DNA from: Escherichia phage vB_EcoM-101112UKE3-1
Sequence record: MZ234013.1
DNA: 64,000 nt
Reading direction: 5' to 3' (one strand)
Below the pieces are notes generated by a model. It ran no database searches. It was not told the origin of the DNA and saw nothing but the letters and a program-made list of their open reading frames with translations. This document shows, piece by piece, positions 4,180 through 60,143 of the stretch. The stretch's first letter is position 1. Every line of letters begins with the position of its first letter. The translations under genes were made by a program, and so were the position numbers.

Positions 4180-5519
<1,340 letters not shown>

Positions 5520-5579
5520 TTGCTTACATACTCAAATGATATAATTATTTAACTTATTGATGAATTGAAAGGAAAAATA

Positions 5580-6098
5580 ATGGCTTACTTTAACGAATGT
5601 AGTCAACTGATCGAAGGCGCTGATAAAGCTCAAAATGAATATTGGGATATTCTCGGTGATGAAAAAGACCCGCTGCAGGTAATGCTTGACATGCAGAAAT
5701 CTCTGCAGATTCGTTTAGCTAAAGATAAACCTGAATATAACCGTCATCCTGATGATTTGGCTACTGCAGGTGAAGTTGTTGATTGGCTGCGTAATCAGAA
5801 AGATTATATTGATGATGAATTCCGCGAACTTCTGACTTCTCTTGGTGGTATGAGCAATGGTGAAAAAGATGCATCTGCTGTATGGAAGCCTTGGAAAGCT
5901 CAACATGGTGAACGACGTGAAACTCTGATTACTGATTTGTCTCCACAAGACCAGTTGGAAATTAAATTCGAAATGATTGATATTCTTCATTTCGTTCTGA
6001 ACATGTTCCAAGGCCTCGGTCTTACGGCTGAAGAAATCTTTAAACTTTATTATCTGAAAAATGCTGAAAATTTCGCTCGTCAAGACCGAGGTTATTAA
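5580..6098 (+). CDS. 56: dCTP/dCDP pyrophosphatase gp56
   Basis: Sequence matches T4 gp56 (MAxFNEC...); follows dam. Confidence 0.9.
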   Translation: MAYFNECSQLIEGADKAQNEYWDILGDEKDPLQVMLDMQKSLQIRLAKDKPEYNRHPDDLATAGEVVDWLRNQKDYIDDEFRELLTSLGGMSNGEKDASAVWKPWKAQHGERRETLITDLSPQDQLEIKFEMIDILHFVLNMFQGLGLTAEEIFKLYYLKNAENFARQDRGY

Positions 6099-6128
6099 CA
6101 GCTCGTCTTAAAAGCCGCGAGAATTTAT

Positions 6129-6136
6129 TATAAATA
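6129..6136 (+). promoter_or_regulatory. T4 late promoter box TATAAATA upstream of soc
   Basis: Exact TATAAATA about 30 nt upstream of soc ATG. Confidence 0.5.
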
Positions 6137-6166
6137 ATCATGTAATTTAAATAAAAGGAGAATTAC

Positions 6167-6412
6167 ATGGCTAGTACTCGCGGTTATGTTAATATCAAAA
6201 CATTTGAGCAGAAATTAGATGGAAATAAGAAAATTGAAGGAAAGGAAATTTCAGTAGCTTTCCCTCTTTATTCTGACGTTCACAAAATTTCTGGTGCTCA
6301 TTACCAGACGTTCCCTTCAGAAAAAGCAGCATATACTACTGTATATGAAGAAAATCAGCGTACTGAATGGATTGCTGCAAACGAAGATTTGTGGAAAGTA
6401 ACTGGTGGTTAA
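6167..6412 (+). CDS. soc: small outer capsid protein Soc
   Basis: Sequence matches T4 Soc (MASTRGYVNIKTFEQ...). Confidence 0.9.
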   Translation: MASTRGYVNIKTFEQKLDGNKKIEGKEISVAFPLYSDVHKISGAHYQTFPSEKAAYTTVYEENQRTEWIAANEDLWKVTGG

Positions 6413-6418
6413 TAATTC

Positions 6419-6445
6419 AAGGACTCCTTCGGGAGTCCTTTTTTC
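6419..6445 (+). terminator. intrinsic terminator (GGACTCC-TTCG-GGAGTCC + T6)
   Basis: Perfect 7-bp GC stem with TTCG tetraloop followed by TTTTTT. Confidence 0.75.
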
Positions 6446-17067: not shown

Positions 17068-17083
17068 AAGGCCTTCGGGCCTT
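17067..17083 (+). terminator. GC hairpin (AAAGGCC-TTCG-GGCCTTT), weak terminator candidate
   Basis: Stem-loop after ORF; weak U tract. Confidence 0.4.
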
Positions 17084-19222: not shown

Positions 19223-21400
19223 ATGATTATCACCACTGAAAAAGAAACAATTCTTGGCAATGGTTCTAAATCAAAAGCATTTAGCATCACAGCATCTCCT
19301 AAAGTATTTAAAATTCTGTCATCTGATTTGTATACAAACAAGATTCGTGCAGTAGTCCGTGAATTAATTACTAATATGATTGATGCCCATGCACTTAATG
19401 GAAATCCTGAAAAATTTATCATACAAGTTCCAGGACGATTAGATCCGCGATTTGTTTGTCGAGATTTTGGTCCGGGTATGAGTGATTTTGATATTCAGGG
19501 TGATGATAATTCTCCTGGGTTATATAATTCATACTTCAGTTCATCTAAGGCTGAATCTAATGACTTTATTGGCGGGTTTGGTTTAGGTTCTAAATCTCCG
19601 TTTAGTTATACTGATACATTTAGTATTACTTCGTATCATAAAGGTGAAATTCGTGGTTATGTAGCTTACATGGATGGTGATGGTCCACAAATTAAACCTA
19701 CATTCGTAAAAGAAATGGGTCCAGATGATAAAACTGGTATTGAAATCGTAGTTCCAGTTGAAGAAAAAGACTTTAGAAACTTTGCTTATGAAGTTTCTTA
19801 TATCATGCGACCATTCAAAGATTTGGCTATCATTAATGGTCTTGACCGCGAAATTGATTATTTTCCGGATTTTGATGACTATTACGGTGTAAATCCAGAA
19901 AGATACTGGCCTGATCGTGGTGGATTATATGCTATCTATGGCGGTATTGTTTATCCTATCGATGGTGTTATTAGAGACCGTAACTGGCTAAGCATTCGCA
20001 ATGAAGTGAATTACATTAAGTTTCCAATGGGTTCACTTGATATTGCTCCATCTCGCGAGGCTCTTTCACTGGATGATCGTACTCGTAAAAATATTATTGA
20101 ACGAGTTAAAGAACTCAGTGAGAAAGCATTTAATGAAGATGTAAAACGATTTAAAGAATCCACATCTCCCCGTCATACATATCGTGAATTGATGAAGATG
20201 GGGTATTCTGCTCGAGATTATATGATTAGTAATTCAGTCAAATTTACGACTAAAAATCTGTCATATAAGAAGATGCAAAGCATGTTTGAACCTGATAGTA
20301 AGTTATGCAATGCAGGAGTTGTGTATGAAGTAAATCTTGACCCTCGACTGAAACGCATTAAGCAAAGCCATGAAACTTCAGCCGTTGCATCAAGTTATCG
20401 TCTGTTTGGTATTAATACAACAAAAATTAATATCGTTATTGATAATATTAAAAATCGTGTTAATATTGTCCGTGGATTAGCACATGCGTTAGATGATAGT
20501 GAATTTAATAACACTTTGAATATTCATCACAACGAACGCCTTCTGTTTATTAATCCAGAAGTAGAATCGCAGATTGATTTGCTTCCTGATATTATGGCGA
20601 TGTTTGAAAGTGATGAAGTTAACATTCATTATTTGTCAGAAATTGAAGCTTTAGTTAAAAGCTATATTCCAAAGGTAGTTAAAAGTAAAGCTCCTCGTCC
20701 TAAAGCTGCTACAGCATTTAAGTTTGAAATTAAAGACGGGCGCTGGGAAAAAGAGGAATTATTTACGCTCACATCAGAAGCAGATGAAATTACTGGGTAT
20801 GTAGCGTATATGCATCGTTCTGATATTTTCTCTATGGATGGTACTACATCTCTTTGTCATCCATCTATGAATATTTTGATTCGTATGGCTAATCTTATTG
20901 GCATTAATGAGTTTTATGTTATTCGTCCGCTTTTGCAGAAAAAGGTAAAAGAACTCGGTCAGTGCCAATGTATTTTTGAAACTCTGCGTGATTTATATGT
21001 AGATGCTTTTGATGATGTAGATTATGATAAGTACGTAGGTTATTCAAGTTCAGCTCAACGATATATTGATAAAATTATCAAGTATCCTGAACTAGATTTT
21101 ATGATGAAGTACTTCAGTACAGATGAAGTTTCTGAAGAATATACACGACTCGCTAATATAGTTAGTTCATTGCGCGGTGTATATTTTAATGGTGGAAAAG
21201 ATACCATCGGTCATGACATCTGGACAGTAACTAATCTCTTTGATGAATTATCACGTAATGCTTCAAAAAATAGTGATAAAATGGTTGCTGAGTTTACCAA
21301 GAAATTCCGTATTGTTTCCGACTTCATCGGTTATCGTAACTCTTTGAGTGATGATGAAGTTTCCCAAATCGCTAAAACTATGAAGGCCCTTGCGGCCTAA
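19223..21400 (+). CDS. rIIA: rIIA membrane-associated protein, 725 aa
   Basis: Length 725 aa and sequence match T4 rIIA. Confidence 0.92.
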
Positions 21401-21411
21401 TAAGGAAAATT

Positions 21412-22350
21412 ATGTACAATATTAAATGCCTGACCAAAAACGAACAAGCTGAAATTGTTAAATTGTATTCAAGTGGTAATTACACCCAACAGGAATTGGC
21501 TGATTGGCAAGGTGTATCGGTTGACACAATTCGTCGTGTTTTGAAAAATGCTGAAGAAGCTAAACGCTCTAAAGTTACTATTAGCGGTGATATTACAGTT
21601 AAAGTTAATAGCGATGCAGTTATTGCTCCAGTTGCTAAATCTGACATTATTTGGAATGCATCTAAAAAATTCATTTCAATTACTGTTGACGGTGTAACTT
21701 ATAACGCAACTCCTAATACTCATTCAAACTTCCAGGAAATTCTTAATCTGCTTGTAGCGGATAAGTTGGAAGAAGCGGCACAAAAAATTAATGTTCGTCG
21801 CGCTGTTGAAAAATATATTTCAGGCGATGTTCGAATTGAAGGTGGAAGCTTATTCTATCAAAATATTGAATTGCGATCTGGTTTGGTTGATCGTATTCTT
21901 GACTCGATGGAAAAAGGCGAAAACTTTGAATTTTATTTTCCGTTCTTGGAAAATCTGTTGGAAAACCCAAGCCAGAAAGCGGTATCTCGACTCTTTGATT
22001 TCTTGGTAGCAAACGATATTGAAATTACAGAAGATGGTTACTTCTATGCTTGGAAAGTAGTTCGCAGTAATTACTTTGACTGTCATTCAAATACTTTTGA
22101 TAACAGTCCTGGTAAAGTAGTTAAAATGCCACGTACTCGTGTGAATGACGATGATACACAAACTTGTTCTCGTGGTCTGCATGTGTGTTCTAAATCTTAT
22201 ATTCGTCACTTTGGTAGTTCAACCAGTCGAGTTGTAAAAGTTAAAGTGCATCCTCGCGATGTGGTATCAATTCCGATTGATTACAACGACGCTAAAATGC
22301 GTACCTGCCAATACGAAGTAGTTGAAGACGTTACTGAACAATTTAAATAA
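21412..22350 (+). CDS. rIIB: rIIB protein, 312 aa
   Basis: Length 312 aa; adjacent to rIIA. Confidence 0.9.
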   Translation: MYNIKCLTKNEQAEIVKLYSSGNYTQQELADWQGVSVDTIRRVLKNAEEAKRSKVTISGDITVKVNSDAVIAPVAKSDIIWNASKKFISITVDGVTYNATPNTHSNFQEILNLLVADKLEEAAQKINVRRAVEKYISGDVRIEGGSLFYQNIELRSGLVDRILDSMEKGENFEFYFPFLENLLENPSQKAVSRLFDFLVANDIEITEDGYFYAWKVVRSNYFDCHSNTFDNSPGKVVKMPRTRVNDDDTQTCSRGLHVCSKSYIRHFGSSTSRVVKVKVHPRDVVSIPIDYNDAKMRTCQYEVVEDVTEQFK

Positions 22351-22364
22351 GGGCTTCGGCCCTT
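22349..22364 (+). other. GC hairpin AAGGGC-TTCG-GCCCTT (no U tract)
   Basis: Perfect hairpin; same 16-mer recurs at 22578. Confidence 0.6.
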
Positions 22365-22378
22365 AACTGAGGAAAATT

Positions 22379-22573
22379 ATGTTAGGTTATCAAGCACGAG
22401 TAAAAGAAGAATACGATCAATTAATGCTCAAAATTAATGCACTGAGCAAATTTTTAGAAAGCGCAAAGTTTCTAACAGTTAATGCAGTTGAGCAAGAACT
22501 GTTACTTTCGCAGTTTATCTCAATGAAATCTTATGCTGAATGTCTAGAGAAAAGAATTGCACAATTCAAATAA
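22379..22573 (+). CDS. hypothetical protein, 64 aa
   Basis: ORF with GAGGA SD. Confidence 0.5.
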   Translation: MLGYQARVKEEYDQLMLKINALSKFLESAKFLTVNAVEQELLLSQFISMKSYAECLEKRIAQFK

Positions 22574-22577
22574 AATA

Positions 22578-22599
22578 AGGGCTTCGGCCCTTTTGTTTT
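22578..22599 (+). terminator. intrinsic terminator (AAGGGC-TTCG-GCCCTT + TTGTTTT)
   Basis: Hairpin plus U-rich tract. Confidence 0.65.
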
Positions 22600-22659
22600 A
22601 AGAGAAATTATGATTTATTATATGAATACCAGTGATTCAGACATAAAAGGAAAGTTTAA

Positions 22660-23217
22660 ATGCAGAAAACGAATCCGGGGTTACAGAGACTATTTCAGAT
22701 TCCGACATTTACCCTATCGAACAGTGACTTGACTAGTGAAATGAAGGTCAAAATTGCTGATACTGCAAGATACTCTTTAAAACAAAACCCGAACCAGGAT
22801 AAAGCAGAAGTTATTGAAAGATGTCGTATTGCTGTATACGCAGAGTTTTTTGTAGCAGATTGGCTAAGCGGGTATGTTAATAAAGGTCAAGAAGATGTCG
22901 ATGATCCATATACATACGCGTGGGATGTTTTAGCACATCCAAAATACTGTGGGCTTCGTGTAGAAGTTAAGACACATCAAACTGGCTCACGTTGGATTTC
23001 TGTAACAACAGGATGCAGCGGAGAGTATCCATACGGTTCTGGAATAAATCTAGGGCCCATTCTAAATCATCAAGTCGCTGACTGTATAATTATATTCAAC
23101 ACTAAAGAAATTCATCCAGGTGTTATCCAGTACACTCCGAAGTTCATCGGTGACAGAGAAGACCTTCGTAAGGTTGTAAGAAAAAGCAACTACAATGGAT
23201 GGTATCTTTCCATTTAA
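22660..23217 (+). CDS. denB: endonuclease IV (DenB), 185 aa
   Basis: 185 aa; position downstream of rIIB as in T4. Confidence 0.8.
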   Translation: MQKTNPGLQRLFQIPTFTLSNSDLTSEMKVKIADTARYSLKQNPNQDKAEVIERCRIAVYAEFFVADWLSGYVNKGQEDVDDPYTYAWDVLAHPKYCGLRVEVKTHQTGSRWISVTTGCSGEYPYGSGINLGPILNHQVADCIIIFNTKEIHPGVIQYTPKFIGDREDLRKVVRKSNYNGWYLSI

Positions 23218-23235: not shown

Positions 23236-23265
23236 GTTTACATACCACAAGGACCGTGGTACTAT
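23236..23265 (+). promoter_or_regulatory. T4-type early promoter
   Basis: GTTTAC then 18 nt then TACTAT. Confidence 0.55.
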
Positions 23266-23292
23266 ACAACTATCAGCTACGGAGGAGTAAAA

Positions 23293-23556
23293 ATGAAATT
23301 TAAATTTTATTATGCTAAACATAAAATTACCGGTGAATTTATTGCATTTACGACTTCAACTACAGATGAAGGAGATATTTTTACTGCAGTATTTTTATCA
23401 AAATGGGAATCAGATCAACCTTACTTATCATCACGTGAAGATCTCCAACGATTAGTTAATGGAGAATATAATGATTCATGGTCATATTTAGTCCATGATT
23501 GTGTTAAAAAGGCAATAAAACAAAAACACTTGGAAATCGTTGAGATTGAACTATGA
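23293..23556 (+). CDS. hypothetical protein, 87 aa
   Basis: ORF with GGAGGAG SD. Confidence 0.5.
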   Translation: MKFKFYYAKHKITGEFIAFTTSTTDEGDIFTAVFLSKWESDQPYLSSREDLQRLVNGEYNDSWSYLVHDCVKKAIKQKHLEIVEIEL

Positions 23557-23589
23557 GTTCATTATGTTGGTGTTTTGTTTGGTTAATTA

Positions 23590-23699
23590 GTATTCCAGTA
23601 ATTTGTTTAACATTTACTTTTGTGATGAGGTTATTATGAAAATTGTATTCCAGTAATTTGTTTAACATTTACTTTTGTGATGAGGTTATTATGAAAATT
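23590..23699. repeat. perfect tandem duplication, 2 x 55 bp
   Basis: 23590..23644 is identical to 23645..23699. Confidence 0.9.
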
Positions 23700-23796: not shown

Positions 23797-23826
23797 GTTT
23801 ACAAGACTGTTCTTCCGTGGTACTAT
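23797..23826 (+). promoter_or_regulatory. T4-type early promoter
   Basis: GTTTAC then 18 nt then TACTAT. Confidence 0.55.
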
Positions 23827-23854
23827 TACCCTATCAACTACGGAGGAACAGAAA

Positions 23855-23968
23855 ATGAAAAAGATTGTTAAAGCTATATGGAATGTAGTTATAATACTAA
23901 TAGTTTTGAGTATATTCCCAATCGTTTTAATGATTGATGTATTAAACGTTTACTTTGGATTTATGTGA
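23855..23968 (+). CDS. small membrane protein, 37 aa
   Basis: ATG with GGAGGA SD; hydrophobic. Confidence 0.45.
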   Translation: MKKIVKAIWNVVIILIVLSIFPIVLMIDVLNVYFGFM

Positions 23969-25023: not shown

Positions 25024-25103
25024 TGAGTAATTTCCACAACGAACACGTGATGCAGTTCTATCGTAATAATCTTAAAACTAAAGGCGTCTTCGGACGCCAG
25101 TGA
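25023..25103 (+). CDS. stp: Stp peptide (26 aa; modulator of the host EcoprrI/PrrC system)
   Basis: 26-codon [29 protein letters not shown] recognised as T4 Stp; overlaps ndd stop (TAATG). Confidence 0.8.
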
Positions 25104-35251: not shown

Positions 35252-35279
35252 AAGAAAAAGGGAACCCGAAGGCTCCCTC
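35252..35279 (-). terminator. intrinsic terminator after gene 35 (GGGAGCC-TTCG-GGTTCCC + U tract on minus strand)
   Basis: Hairpin plus U tract. Confidence 0.6.
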
Positions 35280-60113: not shown

Positions 60114-60143
60114 AGGACTCCTTCGGGAGTCCTTTTTTATTTT
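60114..60143 (+). terminator. intrinsic terminator (GAGGACTCC-TTCG-GGAGTCC + T6)
   Basis: Hairpin plus U tract; same stem as the terminator at 6419. Confidence 0.75.

Follow-up and report, generated by a model that had tools for sequence, protein, structure and literature searches.

Hairpins with a C(UUCG)G tetraloop were reportedly described in the intercistronic mRNA of phage T4 by Tuerk et al. in 1988. It was also in T4 mRNA that UUCG tetraloops were first noticed (PMC4371310). In addition, recombination at short repeats is known from T4-type phages. T4 deletes and amplifies DNA between microhomologies of 6-10 bp (Srikant et al., 2022; PMC9391042). PeSL (promoter-early stem-loop) repeats, in which a stem-loop and a sigma-70-like early promoter form one conserved motif, release small ORFs as circles from RB49 and phi1, one crossover having been located inside the loop (Arbiol, 2010; PMC2839356), and the exchange of ndd.4/.5 between T4 and PST was attributed to PeSLs by its authors (Comeau, 2014; PMC4122927). 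On the T4 map, ndd.4/.5 lie just beyond denB, one of the genes of the locus treated here.

The subject of this work is a 64-aa ORF that stands between two copies of one hairpin in a stretch of phage DNA of 64,000 nucleotides, hereafter called the window. The gene, the hairpin class, and recombination at repeated stem-loops are all already described for T4-type phages. The two copies share with the C(UUCG)G hairpins of T4 intercistronic mRNA the UUCG loop with its C-G closure, the short G+C stem and the intergenic position, and, like those, they combine a place on an early or middle T4-type transcript with high predicted stability. We found no essential difference, and the two copies can be regarded as further instances of that class. 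The likeness to PeSL cassettes is that repeated stem-loops stand on both sides of a small ORF that is non-essential and lies in a plastic region, and that relatives without the ORF carry a single motif. However, PeSL motifs contain an early promoter and are about 50-100 nt long, whereas the repeat here measures 16-26 nt and no promoter-like site was found in it, the next ATG lying only 14 nt from hairpin 1 and 17 nt from hairpin 2. PeSL ORFs are ORFans that differ between close relatives, while the present ORF, denB.1, appears to be old and vertically inherited; about 496 of 497 Tequatrovirus records contain it, and it is absent only in other genera. As for the T4 microhomology deletions (PMC9391042), direct repeats that are short and separated by a few hundred bases, as in our case, are known substrates; a deletion of this kind was seen in the neighboring DUF7418 gene, but none was seen between these two repeats. 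The best explanation of the locus, to which we assign a probability of roughly three in four, is that the known gene denB.1 lies between two ordinary C(UUCG)G hairpins, of which hairpin 1 would be read through and hairpin 2 would act as a leaky attenuator.

The rIIB-denB interval and its two hairpins

By its DNA matches, the window is from a Tequatrovirus (T4-like) genome, and the rII gene cluster ends at the site. With 1 kb of surrounding sequence as the query, 520 phage records were matched, of which 497 showed 90-99% identity, T4, T2, the RB-series, and PST among them. The gene rIIA (19223-21400) is followed on the + strand by rIIB (21412-22350; 312 aa), which matched PHROG 609 "RIIB lysis inhibitor" (E = 5.6e-111) and is annotated as rIIB in T4 and relatives. 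The 64-aa ORF is located at 22379-22573 on the + strand, exactly where the preliminary description had placed it, as the ORF list showed. By its annotation in T4, it is the known gene denB.1, which appears as "ORF64" in an earlier entry, D16359. Further downstream on the + strand are a 40-aa stub of a DUF7418 gene (22610-22732; T4 "ORF37"), recognized by alignment with intact genes and by a tblastn remnant covering residues 84-109, and the next functional gene, denB, encoding DNA endonuclease IV (22660-23217, + strand; PHROG 1360, E = 3.5e-97). The DUF7418 gene is intact at 109 aa in phages G8 and PsgM02F (with a PF24193 match for the G8 gene), while a 214-bp internal deletion in the window and in T4 has left the 40-aa stub. 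In AR1 the deletion is larger than in the window and T4. The end-points of the DUF7418 deletion have a short AAAAG microhomology in common.

The 16-mer AAGGGCTTCGGCCCTT occurs twice on the + strand, and the earlier statement that the ORF lies between two copies of one hairpin was confirmed; the repeat is real. The first copy was found at 22349-22364 as given before, while the second, previously placed at 22578-22593, is actually at 22577-22592, the former coordinates being one base too high. The exact repeat within the window is 20 nt long (AAATAAGGGCTTCGGCCCTT), and the repeat finder extended it to 26 nt at 92% identity (family D4; 22339-22364 versus 22567-22592, spacing 228 nt). The left copy of the extended direct repeat (22339-22364, + strand) takes in the end of rIIB, namely its last three codons and stop codon, together with hairpin 1. 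The right copy (22562-22592, + strand) consists of CAATTCAAATAA, which is the end of denB.1, five extra bases, and hairpin 2.

Hairpin 1 (22348-22365, + strand) overlaps the rIIB stop codon TAA (22348-22350) and reads TAAGGGC-UUCG-GCCCUUA, with a 7-bp stem, a C(UUCG)G tetraloop, and no U tract. Copy 1 is followed by AACTGAGGAAAATTATG and leads straight into the Shine-Dalgarno sequence GAGGA (22369-22373), directly 3' of the hairpin, and the ATG of denB.1; the sequence between copy 1 and this ATG is AACTGAGGAAAATT. Hairpin 2 begins three bases past the stop codon of the ORF and occupies, together with its U tract, positions 22577-22599 on the + strand. It reads AAGGGC-UUCG-GCCCUU (22577-22592) and lies behind an A-rich 5' flank; 3' of it comes TTGTTTTAAG, so that the RNA, with the TT of the stem included, reads UUUUGUUUU (22591-22599). 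Both copies contain GGGC-UUCG-GCCC, i.e., a UUCG loop on a C-G closing pair, as in a C(UUCG)G tetraloop, and in both the stem is lengthened by A-U pairs. Their predicted fold energies are -10.9 kcal/mol (centroid) for hairpin 1 and -11.9 kcal/mol for hairpin 2, with z of about -2.2 to -2.3. No match was obtained in a search of Rfam.

The two copies differ in what follows the stem. Hairpin 2 shows the feature of an intrinsic (Rho-independent) terminator, a G+C-rich hairpin with an immediate U tract (GCCC-UUUUGUUUU), and it resembles such terminators also in its A-rich 5' flank. Hairpin 1 lacks the feature, since its stem is followed by UUAACUGAGG, and it runs into a ribosome-binding site instead. 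It was absent from the + strand list of the terminator scan, where only copy 2 appeared, so that the U tract at the second copy alone, as noted in the preliminary description, was borne out by the sequence as well as by the scan. Records of phage G8, of the D5505 type, and of the G9062 type annotate both hairpins as putative terminators, and hairpin 1 is labeled "putative transcriptional terminator" in phage G8. Both hairpins were terminator-like on the minus strand too, according to the consensus scan. The idea of antisense terminators was considered and rejected, as the minus strand from 22.6 to 35.2 kb is without the late-promoter motif TATAAATA.

Hairpins of this type were common in the window. 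There were five further stable intergenic C(UUCG)G hairpins with stems of at least 6 bp, four on the + strand (at 6419, 17067, 25083, and 60113) and one on the minus strand (at 35258). Those at 6419 and 60113 form a second identical pair, with 25 identical bases 53.7 kb apart. The hairpin at 25083 is laid out like hairpin 1, directly before GTGAGGAAAATATG. Apart from its two exact + strand copies, AAGGGCTTCGGCCCTT has a two-mismatch relative at 17068. Dinucleotide shuffles of the window gave an expectation of 0 exact copies, but such shuffles are not the proper null for a hairpin of this kind, the 16-mer being widespread among viral contigs. Indeed, an IMG/VR scan found AAGGGCTTCGGCCCTT in at least 120 viral stretches. 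The flanks were read in 70 of these, namely those matching on the + strand as stored, and were diverse. With the 16-mer so widespread and its flanks so diverse, the identity of two such hairpins alone is weak evidence of common origin.

denB.1 and its hairpins among T4-type phages

The product of denB.1 belongs to Pfam family PF21825 "crAss001_48 related protein" (68.3 bits against a cut-off of 24.8, residues 4-61) and to phrog_774, a family of unknown function; a PDB sequence search with DenB.1 gave no meaningful match. Orthologs with 46-59% identity occupy the same position in Gaprivervirus, Dhakavirus, Kanagawavirus, and Marfavirus. By this distribution, denB.1 is a real, conserved gene. 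The codon variants among ten Tequatrovirus alleles (13 synonymous versus 5 non-synonymous) indicate that it is under purifying selection. Its GC content, 31.8% as compared with 35.4% in the window, marks its base composition as native. A moron or other foreign gene cassette was considered and rejected: denB.1 has no promoter, its GC content is native, it is syntenic in at least six genera, and its similarity tracks that of RIIB. In a T4 CRISPRi-ART screen the knock-down of denB.1 was scored "Not Fit" (PMC11879866, supplement). We read this score as no measurable fitness effect, and the gene as dispensable in that screen.

Within Tequatrovirus, the arrangement appears fixed as far as the records tell. 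DNA of the rIIB-denB interval was matched at 90% or more by 497 records, and a DenB.1 of at least 80% identity is encoded in 496, which suggests that nearly every Tequatrovirus genome keeps denB.1. Both hairpins, with the same U-tract asymmetry, were present in all 11 Tequatrovirus sequences read base by base (the window and ten others). The survey rests on the phage record counts and these ten sequences, as the conserved core of denB.1 was present in only five IMG/VR contigs. An exact search of IMG/VR for the predicted deletion junction CAATTTAAATAAGGGCTTCGGCCCTTTTGTTTT found nothing. A synthetic junction was composed of the rIIB end, one hairpin, and the sequence after hairpin 2; in megablast its best 15 rows were all two-piece matches spanning 421 nt, i.e., the full cassette, and contained no deletion junction. 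The preliminary description had proposed that the ORF is a cassette inserted or deleted by recombination between repeated terminators, and had itself named an identical arrangement in all relatives as evidence to the contrary. For close relatives the proposal found no support, as neither present/absent variation nor a deletion allele was seen among approximately 500 Tequatrovirus records; by the measure just named, the uniform arrangement in the genus argues against a currently mobile cassette.

The comparison with related genomes, suggested at the same time, had an outcome that depends on distance, uniform in the genus and variable across genera. Four arrangements were found. In Gaprivervirus, Dhakavirus, Kanagawavirus, and Marfavirus (type A) rIIB is followed by a hairpin, denB.1, the DUF7418 gene, and denB. 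In Moonvirus (type B) rIIB and denB.1 overlap (TAATG), and a hairpin with a U tract follows. In Mosigvirus, including RB69, Jiaodavirus, and Gelderlandvirus (type C) rIIB is followed by a hairpin with a U tract and the DUF7418 gene, with no denB.1. Hairpins on both sides of denB.1 (type D) were found in Tequatrovirus and in Pectobacterium phage PM2, where, however, the flanking hairpins are unrelated to each other, GGGC-UCAG-GCCC and GGCC-GCAA-GGCC. Some lineage names were taken from DNA matches to phage records and others from the taxonomy lines of the records. In a neighbor-joining tree of the C-terminal 210 residues of RIIB, each type C lineage was sister to a lineage bearing denB.1, in the pairs Mosigvirus-Tequatrovirus, Jiaodavirus-Marfavirus, and Gelderlandvirus-Moonvirus. 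DenB.1 similarity follows RIIB similarity, and the inheritance of DenB.1 looks vertical. From these sister relationships and the parallel similarity we conclude that denB.1 is ancestral in the phages compared and was lost at least three times.

A hairpin was found in the rIIB-denB interval of every recovered T4-like locus having both rIIB and denB. The loop was nearly always UUCG, with UUUG, UCCG, UCAG, or GCAA in a few, and the stems varied (GGGC, GGGGC, GGGGAC, GGAGGC, GGAGCC, AAGCCC). In 18 such hairpins from different genera, 97% of the cells were paired, a value inflated by the fact that the set was gathered by a hairpin search; changes on both sides were seen in five of the six pairs, and these compensatory changes were not built into the set. 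Paired cells and compensatory changes were well above the shuffled and the slid controls. The six rIIB genes recovered that are most distant have 38-55% identity, and four of them are likewise followed by strong hairpins, with other loops, so a structured element where rIIB ends is, on this comparative evidence, an old gene-boundary feature. Across the genera compared, the hairpin at the rIIB boundary is kept, and its position relative to denB.1 shifts, before the gene, after it, or on both sides.

Origin of the two copies

The likeness of the two copies goes beyond the hairpin. Both rIIB and denB.1 end with CAATTY AAA TAA (Gln-Phe-Lys-stop) in coding register, denB.1 having five extra bases before the hairpin, unlike rIIB. 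The block CAATTTAAATAA recurs with one mismatch at 22562-22573. With up to one mismatch, approximately 3.3 chance matches to CAATTTAAATAA are expected per 128 kb, and the probability of a match within the small set of positions allowed immediately before hairpin 2 is about 2e-4, a value softened by the facts that the likeness was noticed afterwards and that both proteins have a Phe near the C-terminus in other genera. In those genera DenB.1 ends with RF-stop, YF-stop, or YFGE-stop; with these different endings in view, it looks as if the QFK-stop ending appeared in Tequatrovirus together with hairpin 2. There is thus moderate evidence that a local copying event, either duplication or gene conversion, which included the last rIIB codons, probably took place in the Tequatrovirus ancestor. 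The identity of the hairpins would then be due to two causes, the small choice of sequences suited to a good hairpin of this type and the probable copying event. In G8-type genomes the loop is UUUG in hairpin 1 and UUCG in hairpin 2, and with such a mismatch any homogenization between the copies is not continuous. The 40-nt flanks of the single hairpins, when compared with those of hairpins 1 and 2, scored within the shuffled range and were uninformative, and gene order was used as evidence in their place.

It could be argued that the two hairpins are independent and became identical only by convergence on the few maximally stable options with AT-rich flanks, the repeat as such having no significance. 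The wide occurrence of AAGGGCTTCGGCCCTT with diverse flanks in IMG/VR agrees with this, as do the second identical pair, 54 kb apart, among the seven strong UUCG hairpins of the window, and phage PM2, which brackets denB.1 without identical hairpins. Stability, however, leaves unexplained that the likeness extends upstream into the last codons, and the corresponding hairpin of other genera has a different stem while the two Tequatrovirus copies match each other. Pure convergence is for these reasons somewhat doubtful in our view. According to another explanation, the two hairpins form a direct repeat at which recombination, homologous or by microhomology, takes place, and by which denB.1 with one hairpin was excised, possibly as a mini-circle, or inserted, in the manner of a PeSL reduced to its stem-loop. 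T4 microhomology deletions, PeSL excision, and the ndd.4/.5 exchange make a crossover between the hairpins mechanistically plausible, and the repeat, at 20-26 nt, is longer than the microhomologies used by T4. The type C layout, moreover, with rIIB stop, one hairpin, U tract, and DUF7418 gene, is the exact product expected from a crossover between hairpins 1 and 2, and each lineage with this layout is sister to one bearing denB.1, Mosigvirus to the two-hairpin Tequatrovirus itself. Against this stand the absence of a deletion allele from the Tequatrovirus records and IMG/VR, the PM2 hairpins that differ from each other, and the fact that most genera bearing denB.1 have one hairpin, before or after the gene, so that no repeat was present in those ancestors. 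The spacer that follows rIIB in Gelderlandvirus, ACCGTCGTATCAC, is similar to the sequence with which denB.1 of Moonvirus begins at its 5' end, ATGTTACCGTATCAAC; the match is short and suggests, tentatively, that the loss was there an internal deletion which left a 5' remnant of denB.1. DenB.1 similarity that tracks RIIB and the native GC content also count against the recombination explanation, and the variation actually seen in the genus is a microhomology deletion in the DUF7418 gene, not one between the hairpins. We therefore consider recombination through the hairpins unlikely as an account of the locus. For distant relatives, nevertheless, the cassette proposal of the preliminary description was supported in part, since presence and absence are real, denB.1 missing in three genera; as a history of denB.1 loss it has circumstantial support and stays inside what has been published on PeSLs and microhomology, while as a mechanism it is unproven.

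A more specific scenario concerns these losses. The hairpins and the shared last codons may form a minimal recombination module without a promoter, both copies of which were already present in the common ancestor of Tequatrovirus and Mosigvirus. Mosigvirus, and perhaps Jiaodavirus, would then have lost denB.1 by crossover, while in Tequatrovirus the copies would have been kept alike by gene conversion. We regard this scenario as distinctly unlikely.

Probable read-through at the two hairpins

The promoter scan showed no promoter-like site between hairpin 2 and the denB start codon, and reading upstream of denB by eye, rather than by a formal scan, gave no convincing pair of a MotA-type box and a -10 element. 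The nearest strong promoter-like sites downstream, at 23237 and 23798, are past denB (TTTACA-N17-TACTAT, with an upstream TG). As denB is without a promoter-like site of its own, we infer that hairpin 2 is leaky, with denB probably relying on read-through; transcription of denB from promoters further upstream would require such leakage. Our literature search found no 3'-end map of T4 rII transcripts, and all transcriptional and RNA-stability roles proposed here, like the copying event, are readings of the sequence. RNA polymerase would mostly read through hairpin 1, and denB.1 would be co-transcribed with rIIB. Hairpin 1 would be a stable RNA structure at the gene boundary, which might protect the 3' end of the rII message after processing, cause weak pausing or termination, and separate the stop codon from the next ribosome-binding site. 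In agreement with its label in some GenBank records, it may have a weak terminator role. Hairpin 2, with the anatomy of an intrinsic terminator, would be leaky, an attenuator rather than a full stop. "Differential readthrough", the other possibility raised in the preliminary description, fits the anatomy, with a U tract only at hairpin 2 and no promoter at denB.

A stronger version of this idea is a regulated read-through switch, in which the pair of hairpins would set the ratio of rIIB, denB.1, and denB, for example through antitermination or an RNA-binding factor that recognizes the repeat. The U-tract asymmetry kept in all Tequatrovirus sequences read and the lack of a promoter-like site at denB speak for such a switch. 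Recognition of a specific sequence, however, agrees poorly with stems whose sequence drifts between genera while the structure is kept, and with a hairpin sequence that is generic and widespread. A review states that no protein binding to the UUCG tetraloop is known (PMC4371310). In other genera a single hairpin, on one side or the other of denB.1, is sufficient, and Rfam has no matching family. A switch of this kind seems to us very improbable.

Taken alone, the arrangement in the window is of little importance. Its added value is modest and comparative and consists in the shifting position of the hairpin and the losses of denB.1 among T4-type phages. If the module scenario were true, common UUCG terminator hairpins would also provide T4-type genomes with points at which small genes recombine, which would extend the PeSL idea to bare stem-loops. 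The locus could be used to test whether deletions in T4 have their end-points at bare terminator hairpins, and likewise what effect a hairpin without a U tract has on the stability and translation of the messages that flank it.

DUF7418 gene beside denB.1

Within the genus, it is the DUF7418 gene, not denB.1, that varies in presence. The window carries a DUF7418 (PF24193) stub of 40 aa at 22610-22732 (cf. L001:915-1244), 3' of hairpin 2, while phages G8 and PsgM02F have the gene at its full length of 109 aa. A 214-bp internal deletion is common to the window and T4, the corresponding deletion in AR1 is larger, and an AAAAG microhomology is shared by the end-points of the DUF7418 deletion.

Gelderlandvirus locus

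In Gelderlandvirus, which has no denB.1, the rIIB stop codon is followed by the spacer ACCGTCGTATCAC (L149:4395-4435; also in L150). This spacer is similar to the first codons of denB.1 in the sister lineage Moonvirus, ATGTTACCGTATCAAC (L153:895-920), and the likeness suggests that denB.1 was lost from Gelderlandvirus by internal deletion. The Gelderlandvirus-type genome L149 also has an insert of ~1.5 kb between the DUF7418 gene and denB (4888-6347), holding one ORF of 205 aa and another of 281 aa; its close relative L150 lacks this insert.

Hairpins, repeats and promoter-like sites in the window

The hairpin GGCGTC-UUCG-GACGCC at 25083-25098 is a third of the C(UUCG)G type that has no U tract, and GTGAGGAAAATATG lies directly 3' of it. 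Its layout is the same as that of hairpin 1, i.e., hairpin and then ribosome-binding site, and the 16-nt ribosome-binding-site block, GTGAGGAAAATATGAA, has an exact second copy at 23965. Two identical copies of the 25-nt terminator hairpin AGGACTCCTTCGGGAGTCCTTTTTT, with UUCG loop, 9-bp stem and U tract, lie 53.7 kb apart (6420-6444 and 60114-60138).

At 23585-23694 a 55-nt unit is tandemly duplicated in perfect register with 96% identity; both copies end in GAGGTTATTATGA, thus the ribosome-binding site and start codon were duplicated as well. An early-promoter-like site that reads TTTACA-N17-TACTAT and has a TG upstream occurs twice, at 23237-23293 and 23798-23854, flanking small ORFs downstream of denB. 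Both copies lead into a 40-nt leader repeat (80% identity) ending in GGAGG. The two promoter-like sites resemble the T4/PST-type consensus of the promoter-early stem-loop (PeSL) cassette, TTTACW-N17-TAYWAT.

Slot after rIIB in another T4-like genome

In the T4-like genome IMGVR_UViG_2974769608_000001, the slot 3' of rIIB (L155:4251-4552) contains an early-promoter-like sequence (GTTTAC...TATAGT) and a 66-aa ORF, 3' of which lies an AATGGGC-UUCG-GCCCATT hairpin with U tract. DenB.1 queries gave no match to this ORF, which is apparently unrelated to denB.1; the slot can therefore house different small genes.
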